Below, piece by piece: positions 9,251 to 17,155 of a DNA stretch of 64,000 bases; position 1 is the stretch's first letter, and each line of letters begins with the position of its first letter. The DNA is taken from contig JACPLG010000008.1 of the NCBI GenBank assembly GCA_016186625.1, positions 147,142-211,141 on the forward strand, in the 5' to 3' direction. The position numbers and the translations under genes were made by a program. This stretch comes from Candidatus Levyibacteriota bacterium (GTDB taxonomy: Bacteria > Patescibacteriota > Microgenomatia > Levybacterales > UBA12049). The notes beneath the pieces were generated by a model that was not told the DNA's origin, made no database searches, and saw only the letters and a program-made list of their open reading frames with translations.

Positions 9251-9508
9251 ATGTATTACGTTTATGTTTTGAGAAGTAAAAAAGACGGAAAGCTTTATAC
9301 AGGTTTTACAGACAATCCTGAAAAAAGACTTAAAAAACACAATGCAGGTGAAGTTTTATCAACAAAGGTAAGAGTTCCTTTTGAGATAGTTTATTTGGAA
9401 GGGTGCAAAAACAAAACTGATGCATTGCATAGAGAAATTTATTTAAAAACAAGTTGGGGAAAAAGATACGTGAAAAATAGAATTAAAAATTATCTTAGAT
9501 CCCATTGA
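9251..9508 (+). CDS. GIY-YIG nuclease superfamily protein (UPF0213-like)
   Basis: MYYVYVLRSKKDGKLYTGFTDNPEKRLKKHN matches the GIY-YIG core. Confidence 0.75.
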   Translation: MYYVYVLRSKKDGKLYTGFTDNPEKRLKKHNAGEVLSTKVRVPFEIVYLEGCKNKTDALHREIYLKTSWGKRYVKNRIKNYLRSH

Positions 9509-9541
9509 ATGGCTTTGAAGCCTATTCAATTGGGATAGAGG

Positions 9542-9605
9542 CCACAGTTGGATAGCTAACGCATCCAACGTGGTCCCATGAAGTGCTCCATAGGAGCTAC
9601 TTCAT
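9542..9605 (+). promoter_or_regulatory. Two adjacent hairpins in the 5' leader of the TasA-like gene, immediately before its SD
   Basis: CCACAGTTGGAT…ATCCAACGTGG and ATGAAGTGCTCC-ATAGG-AGCTACTTCAT, then AGGGAGGGGGTGA and ATG at 9626. Confidence 0.3.
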
Positions 9606-9625
9606 AGGGAGGGGGTGAGAAAATT

Positions 9626-10519
9626 ATGACAAATTTAATAAACACAAAAATAATTCTTTCAGGAGCAACAATTCTGGCAGCTGTAGCGCTCATTATAGGC
9701 GCCACATTTGCCTTCTTTAGCGACTCCGAAACTTCAATTGGAAATATATTTGCAACAGGTGAGCTGGATTTACAAATTGATGCAGAAGCACACTACGCAG
9801 GTTTAACTTGCGATGGGAGTGTTTGGGATGAAGATGTCCCGGATCAATCGACGAGACCCGATTTAATCGGCGATGACTGCGATGGCACATGGGCATTGAC
9901 CGATTTGGATGAAACTCATAAATTCTTCAATCTTACTGATATAAAGCCTGGAGATACAGGTGAGAATACAATCAGCATTCACGTGTTTGATAACGATGCT
10001 TGGGTTTATTTTGAAGTTAATCCAACATCCACTCCAAATGCCTTACAAAATGCACTGTTATTTAATGTATGGCTAGATCAAGGAGGTACACCTGGTTTTC
10101 AAGGACAAATAAACGATCCAACTGAGGGTGATAATATTAGACAACCAGTTACAGAACCTTTGTTAGCAAGTCCAGGAACTATCGATGTGGGCGGAGAGGC
10201 ATATGTATTAGGTCCAATTTTAGCTGCTGTAAGATCGTCTATTGATGCTGCAAGTGACGTATGTGATGATTCTGATACAGGAAGTGATCCAGATGGAGAC
10301 GGAGTAACAGATGGAAATGTGGGTGCATGTCAGGGGCTACCGATAGATGGTCATCTTGTTGGAAGCACAACTTATTACTTTGGTGTAGGCTGGGAATTGC
10401 CTAGCAGCACGGGAAATGAAGCACAAGCGCTAAGTTTTGTAGCGGATATGATATTCCAAGCAGTCCAATACAGAAACAATCCATCACCGGTATTTCCATT
10501 ACCAACGCCAACACCGTGA
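9626..10519 (+). CDS. TasA/camelysin (peptidase M73)-family secreted protein with a SipW-cognate signal peptide
   Basis: N-terminus …ATFAFFSDSETSIGNIFATGELDL is the SipW-dependent signal/cleavage-region motif. The downstream block DIKPGDTGENTISIHVFDN is characteristic of TasA/CalY. Confidence 0.65.
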   Translation: MTNLINTKIILSGATILAAVALIIGATFAFFSDSETSIGNIFATGELDLQIDAEAHYAGLTCDGSVWDEDVPDQSTRPDLIGDDCDGTWALTDLDETHKFFNLTDIKPGDTGENTISIHVFDNDAWVYFEVNPTSTPNALQNALLFNVWLDQGGTPGFQGQINDPTEGDNIRQPVTEPLLASPGTIDVGGEAYVLGPILAAVRSSIDAASDVCDDSDTGSDPDGDGVTDGNVGACQGLPIDGHLVGSTTYYFGVGWELPSSTGNEAQALSFVADMIFQAVQYRNNPSPVFPLPTPTP

Positions 10520-10530
10520 TGGTTAATTAA

Positions 10531-10600
10531 GGGTGGGGATGTTGGGAATTTGGCCACCGGCTCAGAGAGCCTTTGGCTCGGAGAGGAAGATTCCCCACCC
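10531..10600. repeat. Structured intergenic element (outer stem GGTGGGGA/TCCCCACC) containing a tandem CCGGCTCGGAGAG-like motif also found inside the CAP gene (8734-8765)
   Basis: Read directly. About 85% identity over 34 nt between 10557-10590 and 8741-8775. Confidence 0.3.
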
Positions 10601-10719
10601 TAGGGCTGAGAGAAAAAATAAACGTGTGATTTGCATAGAAGTTTATTGTTCGAGCATGTTAAGAATACGTTGGTGATGCTCAGCGCAAGCTTCTCGACTC
10701 TCCTTCGATAGACTCAGGA

Positions 10720-12069
10720 TTGCTCGAAGAAGAATTAGACAACGCTAAAAATATGAAAAGTATATTTAAAGTTATAAATTTAACTATTGCGGGTGTACTT
10801 ATTGCTGTTGCAATTGGAGTTGCCTATATTGCACTTCCCTTTTTTGGCAATCAGGCTTTAATTGTCCGCTCAGGATCCATGAGTCCTGCAATTGATGTGG
10901 GATCTGTAGCAGTTGTTTCTGCAAAGCAGAACCTTCTACCATTTAGTAAACCTGCTATTGCGCAAGTATATAAAACCGGAGATGTTATTGCATTTCGTTC
11001 AGAAAAAAACAAGGAGATAATAGTAACTCATAGAATTGTCAATGTAATTACAGAAAATAATAAAACGCTTTATAGGACTCAGGGGGATGCAAATGATGAT
11101 CCGGACGCTGGACTTGTAAAAAGTGAAAATGTTTTGGGAAAAGCCAACATAGTTATTCCGTATGTTGGAAAAGTCCTGGCTTTTGCCAAGTCAGACATAG
11201 GATTCCCTGCTCTTATATTATTTCCGGCGGTTCTTGTAATACTATTTGAGACCTGGTCAATCATAAAAGAAATTCGCAAACGAAAACAGCTAAATGACAG
11301 ATTTGGATTTGTGAATTTTGATCTTAGAAAGAAAAATAAAGTTAGCTTTTTTGGGCTTAGAGTTTTAATTCCTCTTTTAATATTCAGTCTTTTTATCCCA
11401 AGCACTATTGCCTTTTTCAGCGATTCAGAAACCTCAACCGGAAATGTCTTCCAAGCCGCGGAGAATTTTCCGCCGCAAACTGATCATCTTGTAATTAGTG
11501 AAGTTCAAATAGACGGAGGTATTGCTCAAAACAAAGACAATGATTTCATAGAATTGTATAATCCCACTTCGTCACCAATTAATTTAGAGGGATATAGACT
11601 TGTAAAAAGAACAGGCAATTCCCCTAATGACACAAATATAATTACTTTTACCTCATCACACATAATACCTGCTCATGATTATTTTTTATGGGCTCATGTG
11701 TCTGGAGGTCAAAATCCTAATAATTTTGGCATAAATATTGGGGCTGATGTAACATCATCAGATACGCTTTCTGCAAGCAATAGTGTCGCGATTAGGTTTG
11801 GAGATCTTAATACTGGAACCATCGTAGACGCATTAAGCTGGGATCCTGGCGCGTCATCACTGAAAGAAGGCTCTCAGTTTCCATCAAATCCTTCAGCAAA
11901 TCAAAGCATGGAAAGGAAGGCTTATTCAACATCAACACAGGCAACAATGGAAGGCGGAGCAGATGCTTCAAAGGGAAATGGATTTGATTCAAATGATAAT
12001 TCAGTTGATTTTATCTTAAGATTAGTTTCGCAGCCGCAAAATTCAAGTAGCACGCCTGAAATACCATGA
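10720..12069 (+). CDS. sipW: Signal peptidase I (SipW/archaeal type, S26) fused in-frame to a second TasA-type signal plus a lamin-tail domain (LTD)
   Basis: Residues 1-190 carry TM, SGSMSP catalytic box, …THRIVNV…, TM. Residues 198-449 start at in-frame GTG 11311 (VNFDLRKKNKVSFFGLRVLIPLLIFSLFIPSTIAFFSDSETSTGNVF), then HLVISEVQIDGG…DFIELYNPTSSPINLEGYRL, which is the LTD signature. Confidence 0.7.
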   Translation: MLEEELDNAKNMKSIFKVINLTIAGVLIAVAIGVAYIALPFFGNQALIVRSGSMSPAIDVGSVAVVSAKQNLLPFSKPAIAQVYKTGDVIAFRSEKNKEIIVTHRIVNVITENNKTLYRTQGDANDDPDAGLVKSENVLGKANIVIPYVGKVLAFAKSDIGFPALILFPAVLVILFETWSIIKEIRKRKQLNDRFGFVNFDLRKKNKVSFFGLRVLIPLLIFSLFIPSTIAFFSDSETSTGNVFQAAENFPPQTDHLVISEVQIDGGIAQNKDNDFIELYNPTSSPINLEGYRLVKRTGNSPNDTNIITFTSSHIIPAHDYFLWAHVSGGQNPNNFGINIGADVTSSDTLSASNSVAIRFGDLNTGTIVDALSWDPGASSLKEGSQFPSNPSANQSMERKAYSTSTQATMEGGADASKGNGFDSNDNSVDFILRLVSQPQNSSSTPEIP

Positions 12070-13166
12070 AAAAAAGAAGTATTAAAAAAAGATTATTAAC
12101 GATTGTTTCGTTGTCTTTGATTGTATTAGTAGCTTTGCAGACTAACCTTTTTGGACTTCTTGAGAGGAAAACCGCTTATGCCGTTGGGGATCTTAATGTC
12201 ATCTGGGGAGTGCCTGACGGGGATCCAATATTTGTAGTTGAAAATATGCTTCCCGGGGACATGGAGGATAGAAATGTTGATGTTATTAACGGTGCTTCTT
12301 CATCAAGAGACGTTGGAGTAAGAGGCGTTAAGACTGAGGAAATTGCAAGTTTTTCCGGGATTTTAGATTTTGTAATTTCAGAGAATGGTTCGCCTATTTA
12401 CGGAACAGGAAGTTCTACTGGTCCTAAAACCTTGCAGCAGTTTTTTGATGAGTCCGCTGGACCAAATGGACTTTTTCTTTCAACACTAAGTTCCGGAGAT
12501 ACAACTACATATAACTTTAAAGCTACTTTTCCAGAAGGATCTGGAAATGAATATCAGGGAGCAAGAGTTGTATTTGATCTTATTATAGGTATCTCAATTC
12601 CAATCCAGGGGTGTGAGGGCATTGATCTTTTACCAAATCCCATAATTGGAACTGAGAAAGCAGAAACTATCAGAGGAACGCCGGGAAATGATCTAATTCT
12701 GGGACTTGAGGGAGCGGACATAATTTATGGTATGGGCGGGCACGACTGCATAATCGGTGGTCCTGGAGCAGAGAATTCTATTTTTGGGGGTCCCGGGAAT
12801 GATGTTATTTTTGGAAATGAAGGCGCAGATTCAATTTATGGGCAAGGAGGAGACGATACTATGTTTGGAGGAGAGGGAGCAGATAAAATCAGTGGCGGAA
12901 CGGGGAACGATCACCTGATAGGAGGAGATGATGCAGACGTTTTGGAAGGAGGTCCTGGAAATGACCATCTTGAGGGAGGAGACGGACCGGATGATTTGAG
13001 AGGAGGGGCTGGAAATGATTTACTTGAAGGTCAAGACGGAGCAGACACAATGCGGGGTAACTCAGGACAGGATAACTTGATAGGAGGTGCAGGAAATGAC
13101 TTTGCTCATGGAGGCGGGGGCACTGATACCTGCGATGCCGAAACAGAGATAAGCTGCGAACTCTAA
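12066..13166 (+). CDS. Secreted protein with a TasA-like N-domain and C-terminal RTX-type Ca-binding nonapeptide repeats
   Basis: Signal peptide. ENMLPGDMEDRNVDVING block. About ten GGxGxDxL-type repeats (GGPGNDVIFGNEGADSIYGQGGDDTMFGGEGADKISGG…). ATGA overlap with the upstream gene. Confidence 0.55.
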   Translation: MKKRSIKKRLLTIVSLSLIVLVALQTNLFGLLERKTAYAVGDLNVIWGVPDGDPIFVVENMLPGDMEDRNVDVINGASSSRDVGVRGVKTEEIASFSGILDFVISENGSPIYGTGSSTGPKTLQQFFDESAGPNGLFLSTLSSGDTTTYNFKATFPEGSGNEYQGARVVFDLIIGISIPIQGCEGIDLLPNPIIGTEKAETIRGTPGNDLILGLEGADIIYGMGGHDCIIGGPGAENSIFGGPGNDVIFGNEGADSIYGQGGDDTMFGGEGADKISGGTGNDHLIGGDDADVLEGGPGNDHLEGGDGPDDLRGGAGNDLLEGQDGADTMRGNSGQDNLIGGAGNDFAHGGGGTDTCDAETEISCEL

Positions 13167-13729
13167 CTTATGGCCTCTGCAAAAACTAATAACCTTTTAA
13201 GAGTTGTCCCCACTGGCCAGCAGGTTTGGAGAATCAGCTGGTCTTTTGTTTGCTCCGTTAAGTATCTTACCTCATTAGGCCAAACATTTTTTTTGTCAAC
13301 AACAGCGTATCTATAAATTTTTCCGTCTTTTTTAATTTCTACCTCATCCCCTTTCTCAAGTTCACCAAGTCTAAAGAAAATTGTATTATAGCTTGCTATT
13401 TCTATTGGATTTCCGGAGGAATGGGCAAAAATAAATACACTTCCCCTTTCTCCTGGAAGAGGTGTTCCTTTTGCATGAGCAACTCCCCTTTTAAGAGCTT
13501 TTTTATATTCTCCTTCATTAAATGGATCAACTCCAAAAATGATTGGAGCCTGCGCCTTTATCTTAGAGACAGTAAGATAACTTCCTTTAAGCTCAGCCTC
13601 ACTTTTAATAGTTTTAGGAAGCAAATAAATTGAAATTATAGGGTAACCTATCAGGAAAAGAATGAGCAAAGACAAAACTATAAATAAGTTTCCAACGTGA
13701 TAGGATAATGGCTTGGTTTTTGTTTTCAT
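13163..13729 (-). CDS. Sortase (class D/E-like transpeptidase)
   Basis: N-terminal TM anchor. His in FIFAHSSGNP. Catalytic TLxTC as LILQTCWP. Conserved Arg (TTLKRLLV). Confidence 0.75.
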   Translation of the reverse strand: MKTKTKPLSYHVGNLFIVLSLLILFLIGYPIISIYLLPKTIKSEAELKGSYLTVSKIKAQAPIIFGVDPFNEGEYKKALKRGVAHAKGTPLPGERGSVFIFAHSSGNPIEIASYNTIFFRLGELEKGDEVEIKKDGKIYRYAVVDKKNVWPNEVRYLTEQTKDQLILQTCWPVGTTLKRLLVFAEAIS

Positions 13730-13777: not shown

Positions 13778-14893
13778 TTAAGCTGCCACAAGAAAATTTG
13801 GGGATCTTCCTGATCGCAACCGCAGGTACCACCCAAAGAAGAACATCATTATGCTTCCTATTATCATAAGTATTGTCCATAAGCCGCCGGTTACCGGAAG
13901 AATATCACCGGGACTAATTGCAGCGGCAAGCACTTCCCCTGCTTTTCCAACGCCATTACCTGCGCCATTTGCTCCATTTTGAGTGGGAACCTGGGGTGGA
14001 GCTGCGCCCGGAGGAATTTCTTTTTCTTTTTCTTTTTCACAGCACTCAACGTCAACTAAAGTTACATTTATCGGGCCATTTTCAATTACTGATTCAAAAA
14101 TTATATCACCGGTTGTTATTGAGACGCTTCCTCCGCTATTGTCATTTGCGCGATTTCCGCCTGTGTTTAGGTCCCAATTACTGTTATTTACAATAGTAGC
14201 GGAGTTATTAACCGAGATATCAATCAAGCTATCTATGTTTAGATTTATAGTGTTTACAGAGTCCGAGCCATTGCCATCGACTTTTAGAAAAACACTTTGG
14301 CCACCGTCTGCTATTCTAAGACTGGATATGTTGATCCATTTATTTTTAATAGTGTCCGTTGCATAAATGCTTCCAGTTGAAATTGAGACATTTCCTCCTG
14401 TGTTTCCATTTGCCTGGTTGTTACCTGTATTGACATACCCGTTAACATAATTTGAGATATTGGCATTTTGATTGATATTAATTGTAACTTGATTGTTTTG
14501 GGTTGAGCTGACAGAGTTCTGTGAGCCTGATCCATTTCCTGACACGCTGATATTTGTCCCCGGGGCACAGCAAACATTTGAAGCTACGGAGTTATTGATA
14601 TTCGAATTGTCGATTGAGGAATTTACCGAAGCATCTCCAGTGGTAATTGCCGTATTTCCACCTGTGTTATCATTTGCTTTATTGTTGCCGGTATCGGCAT
14701 TAATATCTACGTTGTTATTAACGTCTGCTTCATTGTTCTGATTAAGAGCGGTTGTGGATGTATTATTAACTGAGACATTGCTTTGCGAGTCGCTTCCGTT
14801 TCCAGAAACAGTAATCTCATCAGCATTTGCTAAAGCTGTTGTGAACAAAGTCGGCAGAAGAGCCAAGCATATAATTAAAATTTTCCTTGTCAT
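13778..14893 (-). CDS. Sortase-substrate surface protein with N/T/G-rich ~90-aa repeats and a C-terminal LPVTGG sorting signal
   Basis: Signal peptide. Repeats (VSGNGSDSQSNV…ADTGNNKANDNTGGNTAITTGDAS…CC). LPVTGG encoded at 13883-13900, followed by a hydrophobic segment and RLRSGRS tail. Confidence 0.65.
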   Translation of the reverse strand: MTRKILIICLALLPTLFTTALANADEITVSGNGSDSQSNVSVNNTSTTALNQNNEADVNNNVDINADTGNNKANDNTGGNTAITTGDASVNSSIDNSNINNSVASNVCCAPGTNISVSGNGSGSQNSVSSTQNNQVTININQNANISNYVNGYVNTGNNQANGNTGGNVSISTGSIYATDTIKNKWINISSLRIADGGQSVFLKVDGNGSDSVNTINLNIDSLIDISVNNSATIVNNSNWDLNTGGNRANDNSGGSVSITTGDIIFESVIENGPINVTLVDVECCEKEKEKEIPPGAAPPQVPTQNGANGAGNGVGKAGEVLAAAISPGDILPVTGGLWTILMIIGSIMMFFFGWYLRLRSGRSPNFLVAA

Positions 14894-14995: not shown

Positions 14996-17155
14996 TTAAA
15001 ACTTACTACTTTCTCTTGCTCTTATAATTTTCAACCCTCTTCTAATAAGTATTATTAATGCTAAGACGGGTGTTGCTAACAGCAACCAGGCCAAATTAAT
15101 TCTGGTTTTATCTTTATCTGCCAGGATCCCAAGGTTAGTATTTTGTGTTCCTGCAATAAGTTCGGCTGGAACACTTAGGTTTTCGTCACTTGACGGCCCA
15201 AAAGAGAAACTTGGATAAGAGAATGGTCCCGCAGCCGCAATGACATTGCTACTTCCCGCAACCGCCGTATTAGTGTTATTTGAATTTGCGGATACCCAAC
15301 CCCCACCGTTATTATCAGACGAGTTATTGCCAGAGGAGCTATTACTGGTTTGCGGACCTCCTTGGGCAAGCACTTCTCCCGAATCTTTGTGAGCCCCGGG
15401 AGTCAGGAAATCACCAGCCCAACTCCCAAAGACATTAACCATTGTTACAAGTAATTTTCCGCCAACTATATTGTTATTCACAAAGTTTACAATATTGGCT
15501 ATAACTCCCGCATCTCCTGTTGTAATTGAGGAGCTGCCTCCTGTATTGTCATTTGCGCTATTTCCTCCGGTGTTTGCCGAAAGATTGACATTATTTACCA
15601 CATTTGCGGTGTTGGTTTGATTGGTATTATTGTTGACTTCGGAGCTAACAGTGCCATTATTTGTTGATCCTGTCCCATTTCCCTCATTTGTGACTGTAAT
15701 TGCTCCAAACACGTCTTCGCTAAACTGTGTTCCGTCAGATCCTGCATAAAGAGATCCGGCCGGTGCTCCAAAGAGTTTTCCAACCCAATTTCCTGCCTCG
15801 TTTATGATGACCAGCCACATATTTCCACCTAGAAGATTCATATTTGCAATATTAAGAAGATTGGCATCAATTTTTACATTCCCTGTGCTAATAGTACTGC
15901 TTCCTCCGGTATTTCCGCTTGTTGAGTTGTCTCCTGTGGTTGCATCAATAGTGAGATGATTATCAATATTTGCCGTATTAAATTGATTTATAGTGTCATT
16001 AATATTCTGGGCAACATTAGCATTATTATCGGAATTACTTCCATTCCCTATGTTGGCCAGGCTAATATTCCCGCAAACCGGGCAAATTGTTCCAAAAACG
16101 CCCTCGGGAAGAATAATATCTCCTACCAAGTTTCCGAAAATGTTTACTACGCCATATACTACATTTCCAGAAAGATTATTGTTGAGGAATGTTAATAAGT
16201 TAGCAGCTACGTTAGCATCACCTGTTGTGATTGAGGAATCACCACCGGTATTTCCGCTGGCGGTATTATCACCAGAATTTGCCAAAAGATCCATGTTGTT
16301 AATTACTGTGCCATAATTTGTTTGATTAGTATCATTATTAACAGTGGAGTCTATATTCGCGCTGTTATCCGAGTTTGAGCCATTCCCAATGTTTGATGCT
16401 TCAAATACTCCGCAGCCTAAAATACAACTTGCCCCATAATCAAGTAGATAATCTCCAATGTGGTCATCTACTATATTAAACTCAGAGACTGCAACGCCAG
16501 CAACATTTGTATTTGCAGCTGTAATTATTGTTCCCGACGTATTAGCATCTCCTGTATTTATTGTAGAATTTCCTCCAGTATTATTTGATGCTGAGTTCTG
16601 TCCGCTTACTGCAGCGCCTGTCAAATCATTATTGATATTTGCGCTGTTATTCTGATTAGTATTATTGTTCTGGGCGAGTGTAGCCGAGCCGCTGTTGTTG
16701 GAATTTGATCCGTTCTCCGAATTCACAACTGAGACTGCGGGGCTAGATCCTGTTCCAGTCCCATTGCAGCATGGATTAGTTGTAGCAACATTTGTATTTG
16801 CGTTTGTCAGGATATTTCCATCGCTTGTTGCCGTTCCTGTATCAACAGTAGTGTCGCCAGTATTGCCATCATAATTGGTTCCTGTCTGGTTCTGTGGCTG
16901 GGTGCTTGTTGTATTCTCCGAAGACGTGGGACTTATCTCCTGGATCGTTTGGTTTTGTGTTGTATCAACAGATTGGCTTGTTGGCTCAGGGTTACTGCTT
17001 ATAGCTTGACTGGCCGATTGTCCACTTTGGGCCTGTTGTCCACTTTGGGCCTGTTGTGCTTCTTGGGCCAAGACATAAGATGAACCAAATATACCAAGGT
17101 TTAGAAAAAGGACTGTAATTAGAACTATTGATACAATTTTTTTTATCTTCCTCAT
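14996..17155 (-). CDS. Large secreted repeat protein, paralog of the 13778 and 17274 genes (NTGGxSxIxTGDA modules, paired Cys), with C-terminal TM plus basic tail
   Basis: Signal peptide. QQAQSGQ tandem. Repeated …GNGSNSDN…NTGGSSTISTGN… modules with CC/CxxC. C-terminus …INLAWLLLATPVLALIILIRRGLKIIRAR. Confidence 0.55.
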   Translation of the reverse strand: MRKIKKIVSIVLITVLFLNLGIFGSSYVLAQEAQQAQSGQQAQSGQSASQAISSNPEPTSQSVDTTQNQTIQEISPTSSENTTSTQPQNQTGTNYDGNTGDTTVDTGTATSDGNILTNANTNVATTNPCCNGTGTGSSPAVSVVNSENGSNSNNSGSATLAQNNNTNQNNSANINNDLTGAAVSGQNSASNNTGGNSTINTGDANTSGTIITAANTNVAGVAVSEFNIVDDHIGDYLLDYGASCILGCGVFEASNIGNGSNSDNSANIDSTVNNDTNQTNYGTVINNMDLLANSGDNTASGNTGGDSSITTGDANVAANLLTFLNNNLSGNVVYGVVNIFGNLVGDIILPEGVFGTICPVCGNISLANIGNGSNSDNNANVAQNINDTINQFNTANIDNHLTIDATTGDNSTSGNTGGSSTISTGNVKIDANLLNIANMNLLGGNMWLVIINEAGNWVGKLFGAPAGSLYAGSDGTQFSEDVFGAITVTNEGNGTGSTNNGTVSSEVNNNTNQTNTANVVNNVNLSANTGGNSANDNTGGSSSITTGDAGVIANIVNFVNNNIVGGKLLVTMVNVFGSWAGDFLTPGAHKDSGEVLAQGGPQTSNSSSGNNSSDNNGGGWVSANSNNTNTAVAGSSNVIAAAGPFSYPSFSFGPSSDENLSVPAELIAGTQNTNLGILADKDKTRINLAWLLLATPVLALIILIRRGLKIIRARESSKF

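Follow-up and report, generated by a model that had tools for sequence, protein, structure and literature searches.

The window analyzed here is a stretch of 64,000 nucleotides (nt) of contig JACPLG010000008.1, from an uncultured groundwater bacterium of Candidatus Levybacteria, in the Patescibacteria or Candidate Phyla Radiation (CPR) lineage. It carries a gene in which a SipW-like signal peptidase is joined, in one open reading frame (ORF), to an internal signal peptide and a lamin-tail domain (LTD). This layout of peptidase, internal signal peptide and passenger is conserved in well over 100 related protein clusters. The fusion itself, its catalytic residues and the pattern of its internal cleavage site are conserved, its operon context recurs in related genomes, and no internal start codon is conserved. 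The two halves are truly fused, and we consider it likely that the C-terminal half is a substrate of the peptidase and that the product is a self-processing polyprotein.

The ORF runs without interruption from 10720 to 12069 on the forward strand and specifies 449 amino acids (aa) when counted from the TTG codon at 10720. Starting at the ATG codon at 10753, which is more probably the start codon than the TTG, it specifies a 438-aa protein (438 codons plus stop), and residues are numbered for this protein throughout. The 438-aa protein was 100% identical to a database entry, P0001, named "signal peptidase I [Candidatus Levybacteria bacterium]", and the identical protein was present on 5 contigs, the longest of which measures 238,547 bp. 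An AlphaFold2 (AF2) model of the full fusion, built on 64 homologs, had a mean confidence score (pLDDT) of 84.7, with the SEC11-like domain and the lamin-type immunoglobulin (Ig) domain both confidently modeled. The parts of the gene are as follows; TM1 and TM2 denote its two peptidase transmembrane (TM) segments.

10753..12069, forward strand: fused gene (ORF; 100% identity to P0001).
10774..10845, forward strand: TM1, predicted N-in signal anchor (aa 8–31; hydropathy; AF2 helix at aa 2–27).
10846..11196, forward strand: predicted extracytoplasmic catalytic domain of an endoplasmic reticulum (ER)/archaeal-type signal peptidase (aa 32–148; TIGR02228, phmmer, Foldseek).
10876-10878, 11029-11031, 11086-11088 and 11104-11106, forward strand: codons of the key residues Ser42, His93, Asp112 and Asp118, respectively.
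11197..11268, forward strand: TM2, C-terminal transmembrane segment of the peptidase, predicted to run from out to in (aa 149–172; hydropathy, AF2).
11269..11361, forward strand: basic loop, predicted to be cytoplasmic (aa 173–203, EIRKRKQLNDRFGFVNFDLRKKNKVSFFGLR), which holds the GTG codon at 11311-11313.
11362..11412, forward strand: internal signal peptide, with the h-region at aa 204–216 (VLIPLLIFSLFIP) and the c-region STIA at aa 217–220 (site statistics).
11413..11460, forward strand: predicted new N-terminus of the released protein (aa 221–236, FFSDSETSTGNVFQAA), a TasA-type motif.
11482..12066, forward strand: passenger, an extended lamin-tail (Ig-like) domain (aa 244–438; Pfam LTD, AF2, Foldseek, alignment A1).

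A sequence-only reading of this locus had described a frame from 10720 to 12069 that passes from a complete SipW-like peptidase of about 190 codons into a putative substrate with no stop codon between them. The uninterrupted frame was borne out, with ATG 10753 in place of 10720 as the likelier start. The SipW-like peptidase was also recovered, but it is shorter than had been thought and ends near codon 172 of the 438-aa protein. The succession of a TM segment, the SGSMSP box, a His box (THR, containing His93) and a second TM segment agreed with our analysis, and the cleavage-region motif IAFFSDSETSTGNVF was found where it had been placed. The C-terminal domain that had been read as a lamin tail was recognized as such by Pfam (LTD, PF00932, aa 242–363; 49.3 bits, cut-off 34.3).

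The peptidase half matched the NCBIfam model for archaeal-type signal peptidase I (TIGR02228, sigpep_I_arch) with 92.9 bits (cut-off 51.85) and Pfam Peptidase_S26 with 24.7 bits over aa 15–96 (cut-off 22.9). The bacterial P-type model TIGR02227 gave only 28.1 bits (cut-off 47), and the Bacillus SipW equivalog model (NCBIfam NF046067) gave 114.8 bits, which is under its cut-off of 190; the enzyme is SipW-like, not assignable as the Bacillus SipW equivalog. The S-x-S-M-x-P box reads SGS(42)MSP (nt 10870-10887), the general base is a His and not a Lys (T-H93-R), and the GDxN...D box consists of G-D112-A-N plus D118. Phmmer matched the protein to human SEC11A and SEC11C and aligned T-H93-R, G-D112-A-N and D118 with the VHR and GDNN...D of SEC11A. 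Ser42, His93, Asp112 and Asp118 were each kept in 217 of 218 homologous domains, and Met43 in all 218. The domain was modeled with a pLDDT of approximately 90, and its best PDB matches in Foldseek were SEC11C (7p2q) and SEC11A (7p2p; E 2e-6). The intact Ser-His-Asp set predicts that the peptidase is most likely active. No second signal peptidase gene was found among the ORFs of the window, either with a regular expression for S-x-S-M-x-P or with a SipW hidden Markov model (HMM); both searches returned the fused gene only.

Behind this complete peptidase, the third hydrophobic segment and its surroundings are organized as n-, h- and c-regions: the basic loop, a 13-residue h-region, and small residues at −3 and −1. 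The predicted cut falls after Ala220, between nt 11412 and 11413 (STIA↓FFSDSETSTGN), placing Pro216 at P5, Thr218 at P3, Ala220 at P1, Phe222 at P2′, Asp224 at P4′ and N231 at P11′. When 87 internal sites were aligned by anchoring on the invariant Asn at P11′, P1 was Ala in 81 and Ser in 6, and P3 was Thr, Ser, Ala or Gly in 87/87, so that the −3/−1 rule was kept throughout. P5 was Pro in 52/87 sites, P2′ was aromatic or Leu, and P4′ was Asp in 86 of the 87. Stand-alone LTD preproteins carry N-terminal signal peptides with the same site pattern. The uncharged span up to P1 was tightly fixed at 17–18 residues; a comparison of this span between internal and N-terminal signal peptides was uninformative, because the stand-alone preproteins have Lys or Arg at P5. 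Of 170 fused homologs, 98% had a loop with a net positive charge, and the median loop length was 28 aa; such a charge is expected if the loop stays in the cytoplasm and serves as the n-region.

The pattern of the internal sites agrees with that of the B. subtilis TasA site, T-W-A↓A-F-N-D; the TasA site is cut by the ER-type peptidase SipW, and LepB uses it poorly on account of the Phe at P2′ (PMC10269814). TIGR04088, the model for the SipW-dependent-type signal peptide, matched 24 of the 64 members of alignment A2 (58 fused proteins and 6 stand-alone LTD preproteins) at E ≤ 0.01, with a best value of 1.6e-8. The signal peptide of the window protein is internal (aa 173–220), not N-terminal as in the TIGR04088 family.

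Two further features of these segments were observed. Nearly all of the fused SipW homologs in A2 share Glu166 (11248-11250), which lies in TM2 toward the cytoplasmic end of the helix, and a Glu was seen by eye at a similar position in the four split-form SipW sequences. A Lys or Arg is usual just before the h-region of the internal signal peptides (L-K/R-V), this residue being Arg203 (11359-11361) in the window. It is conceivable that a charge pair between Glu166 and the basic residue docks signal peptides against TM2.

Full-length homologs with the fused layout were found by the dozen, at 36–56% identity and from many independent assemblies, and other fused clusters were represented on up to 9 contigs from different projects. 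Using three custom HMMs (peptidase, internal signal peptide and LTD) to assign architectures, the best 120 full-length matches contained 67 proteins with SipW, signal peptide and LTD, 24 with SipW, signal peptide and another or short C-terminus, and 28 stand-alone LTD proteins with a signal peptide. Since a full-length query biases such counts, the peptidase domain alone (aa 1–185) was also searched against 1.84 billion cluster representatives, and the best 150 clusters (50% identity) were classified. Fusions accounted for 98 of these clusters (64 with the LTD and 34 with another passenger behind the signal peptide); 22 had an extension that the signal-peptide model did not recognize, and 30 were plain peptidases. 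Among the top 50 clusters, 48 were fusions. The loops between TM2 and the third segment varied from 11 to 130 residues and were unrelated in sequence, and all of them were in frame.

Split relatives of the fused gene were found in four genomes (L004, L081/L082, L083 and L084/L085). In these, a separate sipW of 175–219 codons precedes an LTD gene with a 4-nt overlap, the TGA stop codon lying inside ATGA; one such arrangement (P0106) was present on 19 contigs. The separate SipW proteins end 15–20 aa after TM2, and the stand-alone LTD proteins (approximately 250 aa) align with the fusion exactly from the n/h-region on. Thus, the loop of the fused protein is equivalent to the SipW tail and the substrate n-region taken together, and the C-terminal half is a complete preprotein by itself. 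Judging from the sequences at the ATGA overlap, a single frame change there would interconvert the split and fused forms.

The passenger can also differ between close relatives. P0034 has the peptidase domain closest to that of the window and is highly similar to it through the peptidase, loop, signal peptide and donor-strand motif (to approximately aa 243), beyond which it carries an unrelated Cys-containing passenger; its operon neighbors are the same as those of the window gene. Other passengers include one of 450 aa in P0109, and some fusions have just a Pro/Thr-rich tail. In a neighbor-joining tree of 218 peptidase domains, the passenger types were strongly interleaved, with at least 55 Fitch changes. 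Because this tree is based on approximately 170 columns and some of the "other passenger" entries may be truncated, we used only the pair P0001 and P0034 as evidence of passenger exchange. As a separate observation, P0070, P0076, P0087 and P0095 consist of SipW and the internal signal peptide followed by 20–50 residues of Pro/Thr-rich linker, and the contigs of two of them are long (12 and 45 kb). These proteins may genuinely have short passengers, or they may be frameshifted fusions with the passenger in the next ORF.

The passenger of the window protein was modeled with a pLDDT mostly above 90, and Foldseek matched it to the Ig folds of lamins B1, A/C and B2 (E 7e-5 to 1e-3). Its extreme C-terminus (SQPQNSSSTPEIP; nt 12028-12066, the last 13 codons) is conserved to the last residue in fused and stand-alone proteins, with the pattern ...SQPQNSxSxxE-x-P, in which Glu436 is invariant in alignment A1; this is not a sortase motif. 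Clear homologs of the extended LTD (aa 244–436, which reaches past the Pfam model) form one module of very large surface proteins. It is C-terminal in Myxococcota proteins of about 1,400–1,900 aa and N-terminal in Bacteroidota and Ignavibacteriota proteins of about 1,100 aa, and it also occurs in Neobacillus proteins of about 2,000–2,200 aa. A scan of genome contigs with LTD-derived patterns returned mostly such unrelated LTD proteins (Myxococcota, Bacteroidota, Neobacillus), and the relevant loci from it were L001–L004 only.

A possible function of the domain that would be released is suggested by the operon, in which the fused gene stands between the genes for a TasA-like and an RTX-type protein, with a sortase gene nearby on the opposite strand.

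9626..10519, forward strand: upstream gene, coding for a secreted TasA/camelysin-like protein that begins with a SipW-type signal peptide (...GATFA↓FFSDSETSIGNIF).
12066..13166, forward strand: downstream gene, secreted protein with a conserved N-terminal domain of approximately 190 aa and RTX calcium-binding repeats; it overlaps the fused gene by 4 nt (ATGA).
13163..13729, reverse strand: sortase gene (Pfam Sortase, 82.1 bits).

The same operon order was found in L001–L004, L081, L083, L084 and L086–L090. The upstream protein matched Pfam Peptidase_M73 (PF12389; 33.6 bits, cut-off 22.5) and TIGR04088 (25.8 bits, cut-off 19), and its AF2 model (pLDDT 86) had the TasA fiber (8aur, E 2.6e-4) as its best PDB fold match, with an archaeal bundling pilin (7ueg) in fifth place. 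The TM-scores to these fold matches were modest (0.31–0.38), which makes the assignment of a TasA fold a moderate one. The TasA-like protein is presumed to be the major fiber subunit and an ordinary (trans) substrate of the peptidase. The downstream gene gave 133.6 bits with HemolysinCabind, and its position is likewise filled in L083, L084 and L087–L090 (alignment A4); a sortase gene also lies nearby in L081, L086, L089 and L090. TasA homologs in Patescibacteria have been noted earlier, without mention of any fusion (PMC9245690).

The predicted N-terminus of the LTD protein (FFSDSETSTGNVFQAA) and the mature N-terminus of the upstream TasA-like protein (FFSDSETSIGNIFATG) were identical at 13/16 residues. 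Across n = 11 genomes, the N-termini of the passenger and the TasA-like protein shared 8.73 of 13 residues within a genome and 6.77 of 13 between genomes (permutation p ~5e-5), a co-variation that would be consistent with the two N-termini evolving together with a common peptidase, a common acceptor groove or the two combined. In TasA, the first residues of the mature protein (28–38) are a donor strand received by the next subunit; the N-terminus of TapA is similar and is thought to supply the first strand (PMC9674648). It is because of this near identity with a TasA-like N-terminus, the donor strand in TasA and TapA, that we read the LTD protein as a TapA-like subunit.

As a whole, these observations suggest the following course of events. 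TM1 would insert with its N-terminus inside, so that the catalytic domain is exported, and TM2 would bring the chain back to the cytoplasm, where the basic loop would act as the n-region of a signal peptide. The third hydrophobic segment would then re-export the chain in the manner of an ordinary signal peptide, and a SipW active site, that of the same chain or of a neighboring copy, would cut after Ala220. The cut would leave a three-TM peptidase in the membrane and free an LTD protein with the N-terminus FFSDSETSTGNVF, which could belong to a TasA-like fiber as an accessory subunit in the manner of TapA, either initiator or adhesin. In the AF2 model, the linking segments at aa 185–198 and 219–242 had low confidence (pLDDT below 50), which would fit a flexible, protease-accessible segment. 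The fusion probably arose through loss of the ATGA stop/start overlap of the split operons. It would have been tolerated because the SipW C-terminus and the substrate n-region are both predicted to be cytoplasmic and cleavage would restore the two products.

Several points weigh against this interpretation. The cut after Ala220 is a prediction from sequence alone, and TIGR04088 scored 18.1 bits on the window protein (aa 211–236), just under its cut-off of 19. AF2 modeled aa 200–223 as a low-confidence helix with the cleavage region not docked in the active site, and so lends cleavage in cis no structural support, nor does the model speak against it. An attached signal peptide might inhibit an enzyme that must also process the presumably abundant TasA-like subunit. 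The motif from P1′ to P11′ could be conserved for SipW recognition alone and not as a donor strand. Pfam and NCBIfam models detected no family other than LTD in the passenger, the central beta-sandwich domain of TapA being absent, and to our knowledge the LTD has no known role in TasA-type fibers. Lastly, some of the matches classed as SipW, signal peptide and other C-terminus may be truncated gene calls, which would inflate the counts of passenger diversity.

A more far-reaching form of the self-processing model, which we put forward only tentatively, is that the protein is an obligate cis-acting module for its own export, making a single self-cut and keeping the spent signal peptide as a third TM helix, and thereby forming a portable fiber-docking cassette. 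If so, the spent signal peptide may gate or inhibit further activity of the enzyme, and an initiator bearing a donor strand would be placed exactly where the TasA-like subunits emerge. CPR bacteria would then swap passengers (LTD, Cys-rich domain, 450-aa domain) on a constant unit of SipW, loop, signal peptide and donor strand, and the module would be a monoderm analogue of an autotransporter, built round a signal peptidase.

The main rival to a self-processing polyprotein is a real fusion in which the third segment is a permanent, uncleaved TM anchor, so that a membrane-tethered LTD is displayed beside the active site as a receptor, adhesin or fiber anchor. The AF2 helix at aa 200–223 runs continuously, at low confidence, through the predicted site, and a fusion that has lasted so long could mean that the covalent link is useful. 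We nevertheless regard a permanent anchor as unlikely. The −3/−1 pattern at 87/87 internal sites and the Pro at P5 in 52/87 are features of a cleavage site, as in the signal peptides of the stand-alone LTD proteins, and the h-region of only about 13 residues and the fixed uncharged span also speak against an anchor. Split and fused forms alternate among close relatives within the same operon, so both should give the same mature product, which the split form makes as a free protein. In addition, a donor strand held right at the membrane could be inserted into another subunit only with difficulty.

The sequence-only reading had left the choice between a fusion and separate initiation of the substrate at an in-frame GTG at 11311. 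This codon is indeed present, and no other in-frame start codon lies between TM2 and the third hydrophobic segment. Initiation there would yield a textbook LTD preprotein (VNFDLRKKNKVSFFGLR followed by the h-region), making two proteins from one ORF and the fusion incidental, and the LTD gene of the split operons does use an ATG of its own that overlaps the sipW stop codon. However, GTG 11311 has no Shine-Dalgarno (SD) sequence before it, whereas the upstream TasA-like gene has a strong one (GGGAGGGGGTGAG), and the closest relative, L089, which shares the loop stretch GFVN(F/Y)DL, has GTA in place of the GTG. In three of the six fused loci examined (L089, L086 and L001), the loop contained no in-frame ATG, GTG or TTG, and a Met occurred in the loop of 60/170 fused homologs only, at no conserved position. 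Since there are loops that lack start codons and no Met is conserved, synthesis of the passenger within the fusion must be the general case. Of the two alternatives, the fusion was therefore upheld; internal initiation is not the general mechanism and appears quite improbable, though it might still take place in this one genome.

One indel in a metagenome-assembled genome could fake a fusion, given that the split relatives differ by a frame change at ATGA, but an artefact of assembly or sequencing, whether a missed stop codon or a 1-nt indel, can practically be dismissed, because the identical protein occurs on 5 contigs, other fused clusters recur on up to 9 contigs from different projects, and the fusion is kept down to approximately 36% identity with loops of 11–130 aa always in frame and in 98 of the 150 nearest peptidase clusters. 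The sequence-only reading had named two outcomes that would speak against it, namely such an artefact and homologs that are consistently split; neither was found, as the same fusion occurs in many independent assemblies and diverged homologs, and fused and split forms both exist.

The region around the fused gene showed further features. A long, GC-rich stem-loop at 10530-10600 on the forward strand (GGGUGGGGA...UCCCCACCC; −38.7 kcal/mol, z-score −2.4 against shuffled sequences) immediately follows the TasA-like gene, whose stop codon is at 10517-10519. The tract that follows is A-rich and not U-rich, so this is not a canonical intrinsic terminator; the stem-loop may determine how strongly the major subunit is expressed relative to the downstream sipW fusion. 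The fused gene has no evident SD sequence and the upstream gene has its strong ribosome-binding site; together with the stem-loop, this difference fits an abundant major subunit and a scarce peptidase–initiator pair. A promoter and terminator scan of 9300-13300 gave nothing above chance.

The third operon gene's N-terminal domain bears the motif AVGDLxVxWGVPxGDPIFxVxNMLPGD..., and its C-terminal module is RTX in most genomes and an LTD in L081 (5777-6778) and L086 (6376-7698). We considered whether this gene is itself TasA-like: hhalign of A4 against the TasA-like family (alignment A3) covered 31 columns with a probability of 10%, which is too little for such an assignment. The matched part was the C-terminal GNE.Q...D strand of the TasA-like family, and the product may conceivably be a fiber subunit of an acceptor-only kind. 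Adjoining the sortase gene are two genes for Asn/Ser/Thr/Gly-rich repeat proteins, at 13778-14893 and 14996-17155 on the reverse strand. The 371-aa protein ends in LPVTG, a hydrophobic stretch and a basic tail, a classic sortase sorting signal, and in the 719-aa protein the C-terminus consists of a TM helix plus a basic tail, with no clear LPXTG. L089 keeps this order of sortase, a protein of approximately 378 aa and one of approximately 718 aa. Immediately upstream of the TasA-like gene is an ORF with a GIY-YIG domain (window 9251-9508, forward strand, 85 aa); its counterpart in L086 (3542-3787, 81 aa, PF01541) sits between two TasA-like genes.

A full-text literature search, from whose coverage subscription journals are largely absent, found no published description of a signal peptidase fused to its own substrate, and the fused proteins stand in databases only as "signal peptidase I". 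Such annotations hide the exported domains, and secretome predictions that consider only the N-terminus miss them. The fusion provides a natural single-chain enzyme–substrate pair for an ER-type signal peptidase, in which cleavage in cis or in trans can be tested directly, and structural studies could use a Ser42Ala variant to keep the substrate trapped in the active site. It also suggests an evolutionary route by which a gene pair with a 4-nt overlap becomes a fusion without cost, as both ends at the junction would be cytoplasmic and the enzyme would separate the products again. For the Microgenomates, ultrasmall bacteria whose surface appendages probably mediate attachment, it points to TasA-like fiber systems with exchangeable accessory subunits.

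Among known systems, the closest comparison is the SipW/TasA/TapA system of B. subtilis. In both, a dedicated SipW-like Ser-His peptidase is encoded together with its substrates, these have in common a motif of the signal peptide and early mature region (small P3 and P1, aromatic P2′, Asp at P4′), and both combine a major subunit that is TasA-like by family and fold with a minor substrate bearing the same N-terminal strand, as TapA does (PMC9674648, PMC10269814). They differ in that the window joins the peptidase and the minor substrate in one polypeptide through an internal signal peptide, that this substrate is an LTD and not a TapA domain, that the order is tasA-like, sipW::LTD, RTX, and that the host belongs to the Patescibacteria/CPR. 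The likeness of the LTD passenger to TapA is a functional comparison and not a claim of homology.

The peptidase domain shares its fold with SEC11 and the archaeal signal peptidases (S26B; 7p2p, 7p2q), together with the Ser/His/Asp residues and the SGSM.P, THR and GDxN...D boxes. SEC11 acts within a multi-subunit complex and has one TM segment, whereas the window protein has a SipW-like TM2 and a third segment, the signal peptide of the substrate. In the glycoprotein polyproteins of flaviviruses, hepaciviruses and bunyaviruses, internal signal peptides re-start translocation and are cut by host signal peptidase, so that one chain yields several mature proteins; there the peptidase is the host's, whereas here it belongs to the very polyprotein of which it is the predicted protease. 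LexA and UmuD, of the S24 family in the same protease clan, are Ser proteases that cleave themselves, in cis or in trans, at an Ala-X bond; they are soluble, use a Ser-Lys dyad, and their cleavage serves regulation and not export. Homologs gave weak Pfam matches to Peptidase_S24, and the catalytic folds are related, but the self-cleavage of the window protein is predicted only. Finally, the Foldseek matches of the window fusion included 4n31, a protein of the SipA/LepA type. In Streptococcus, SipA of this type is a signal-peptidase-like pilus chaperone, encoded near sortase genes, that has lost its catalytic residues. It resembles the window protein in placing a signal-peptidase fold in a surface-fiber locus with a sortase, and differs from it in that the window protein keeps all of the catalytic residues.

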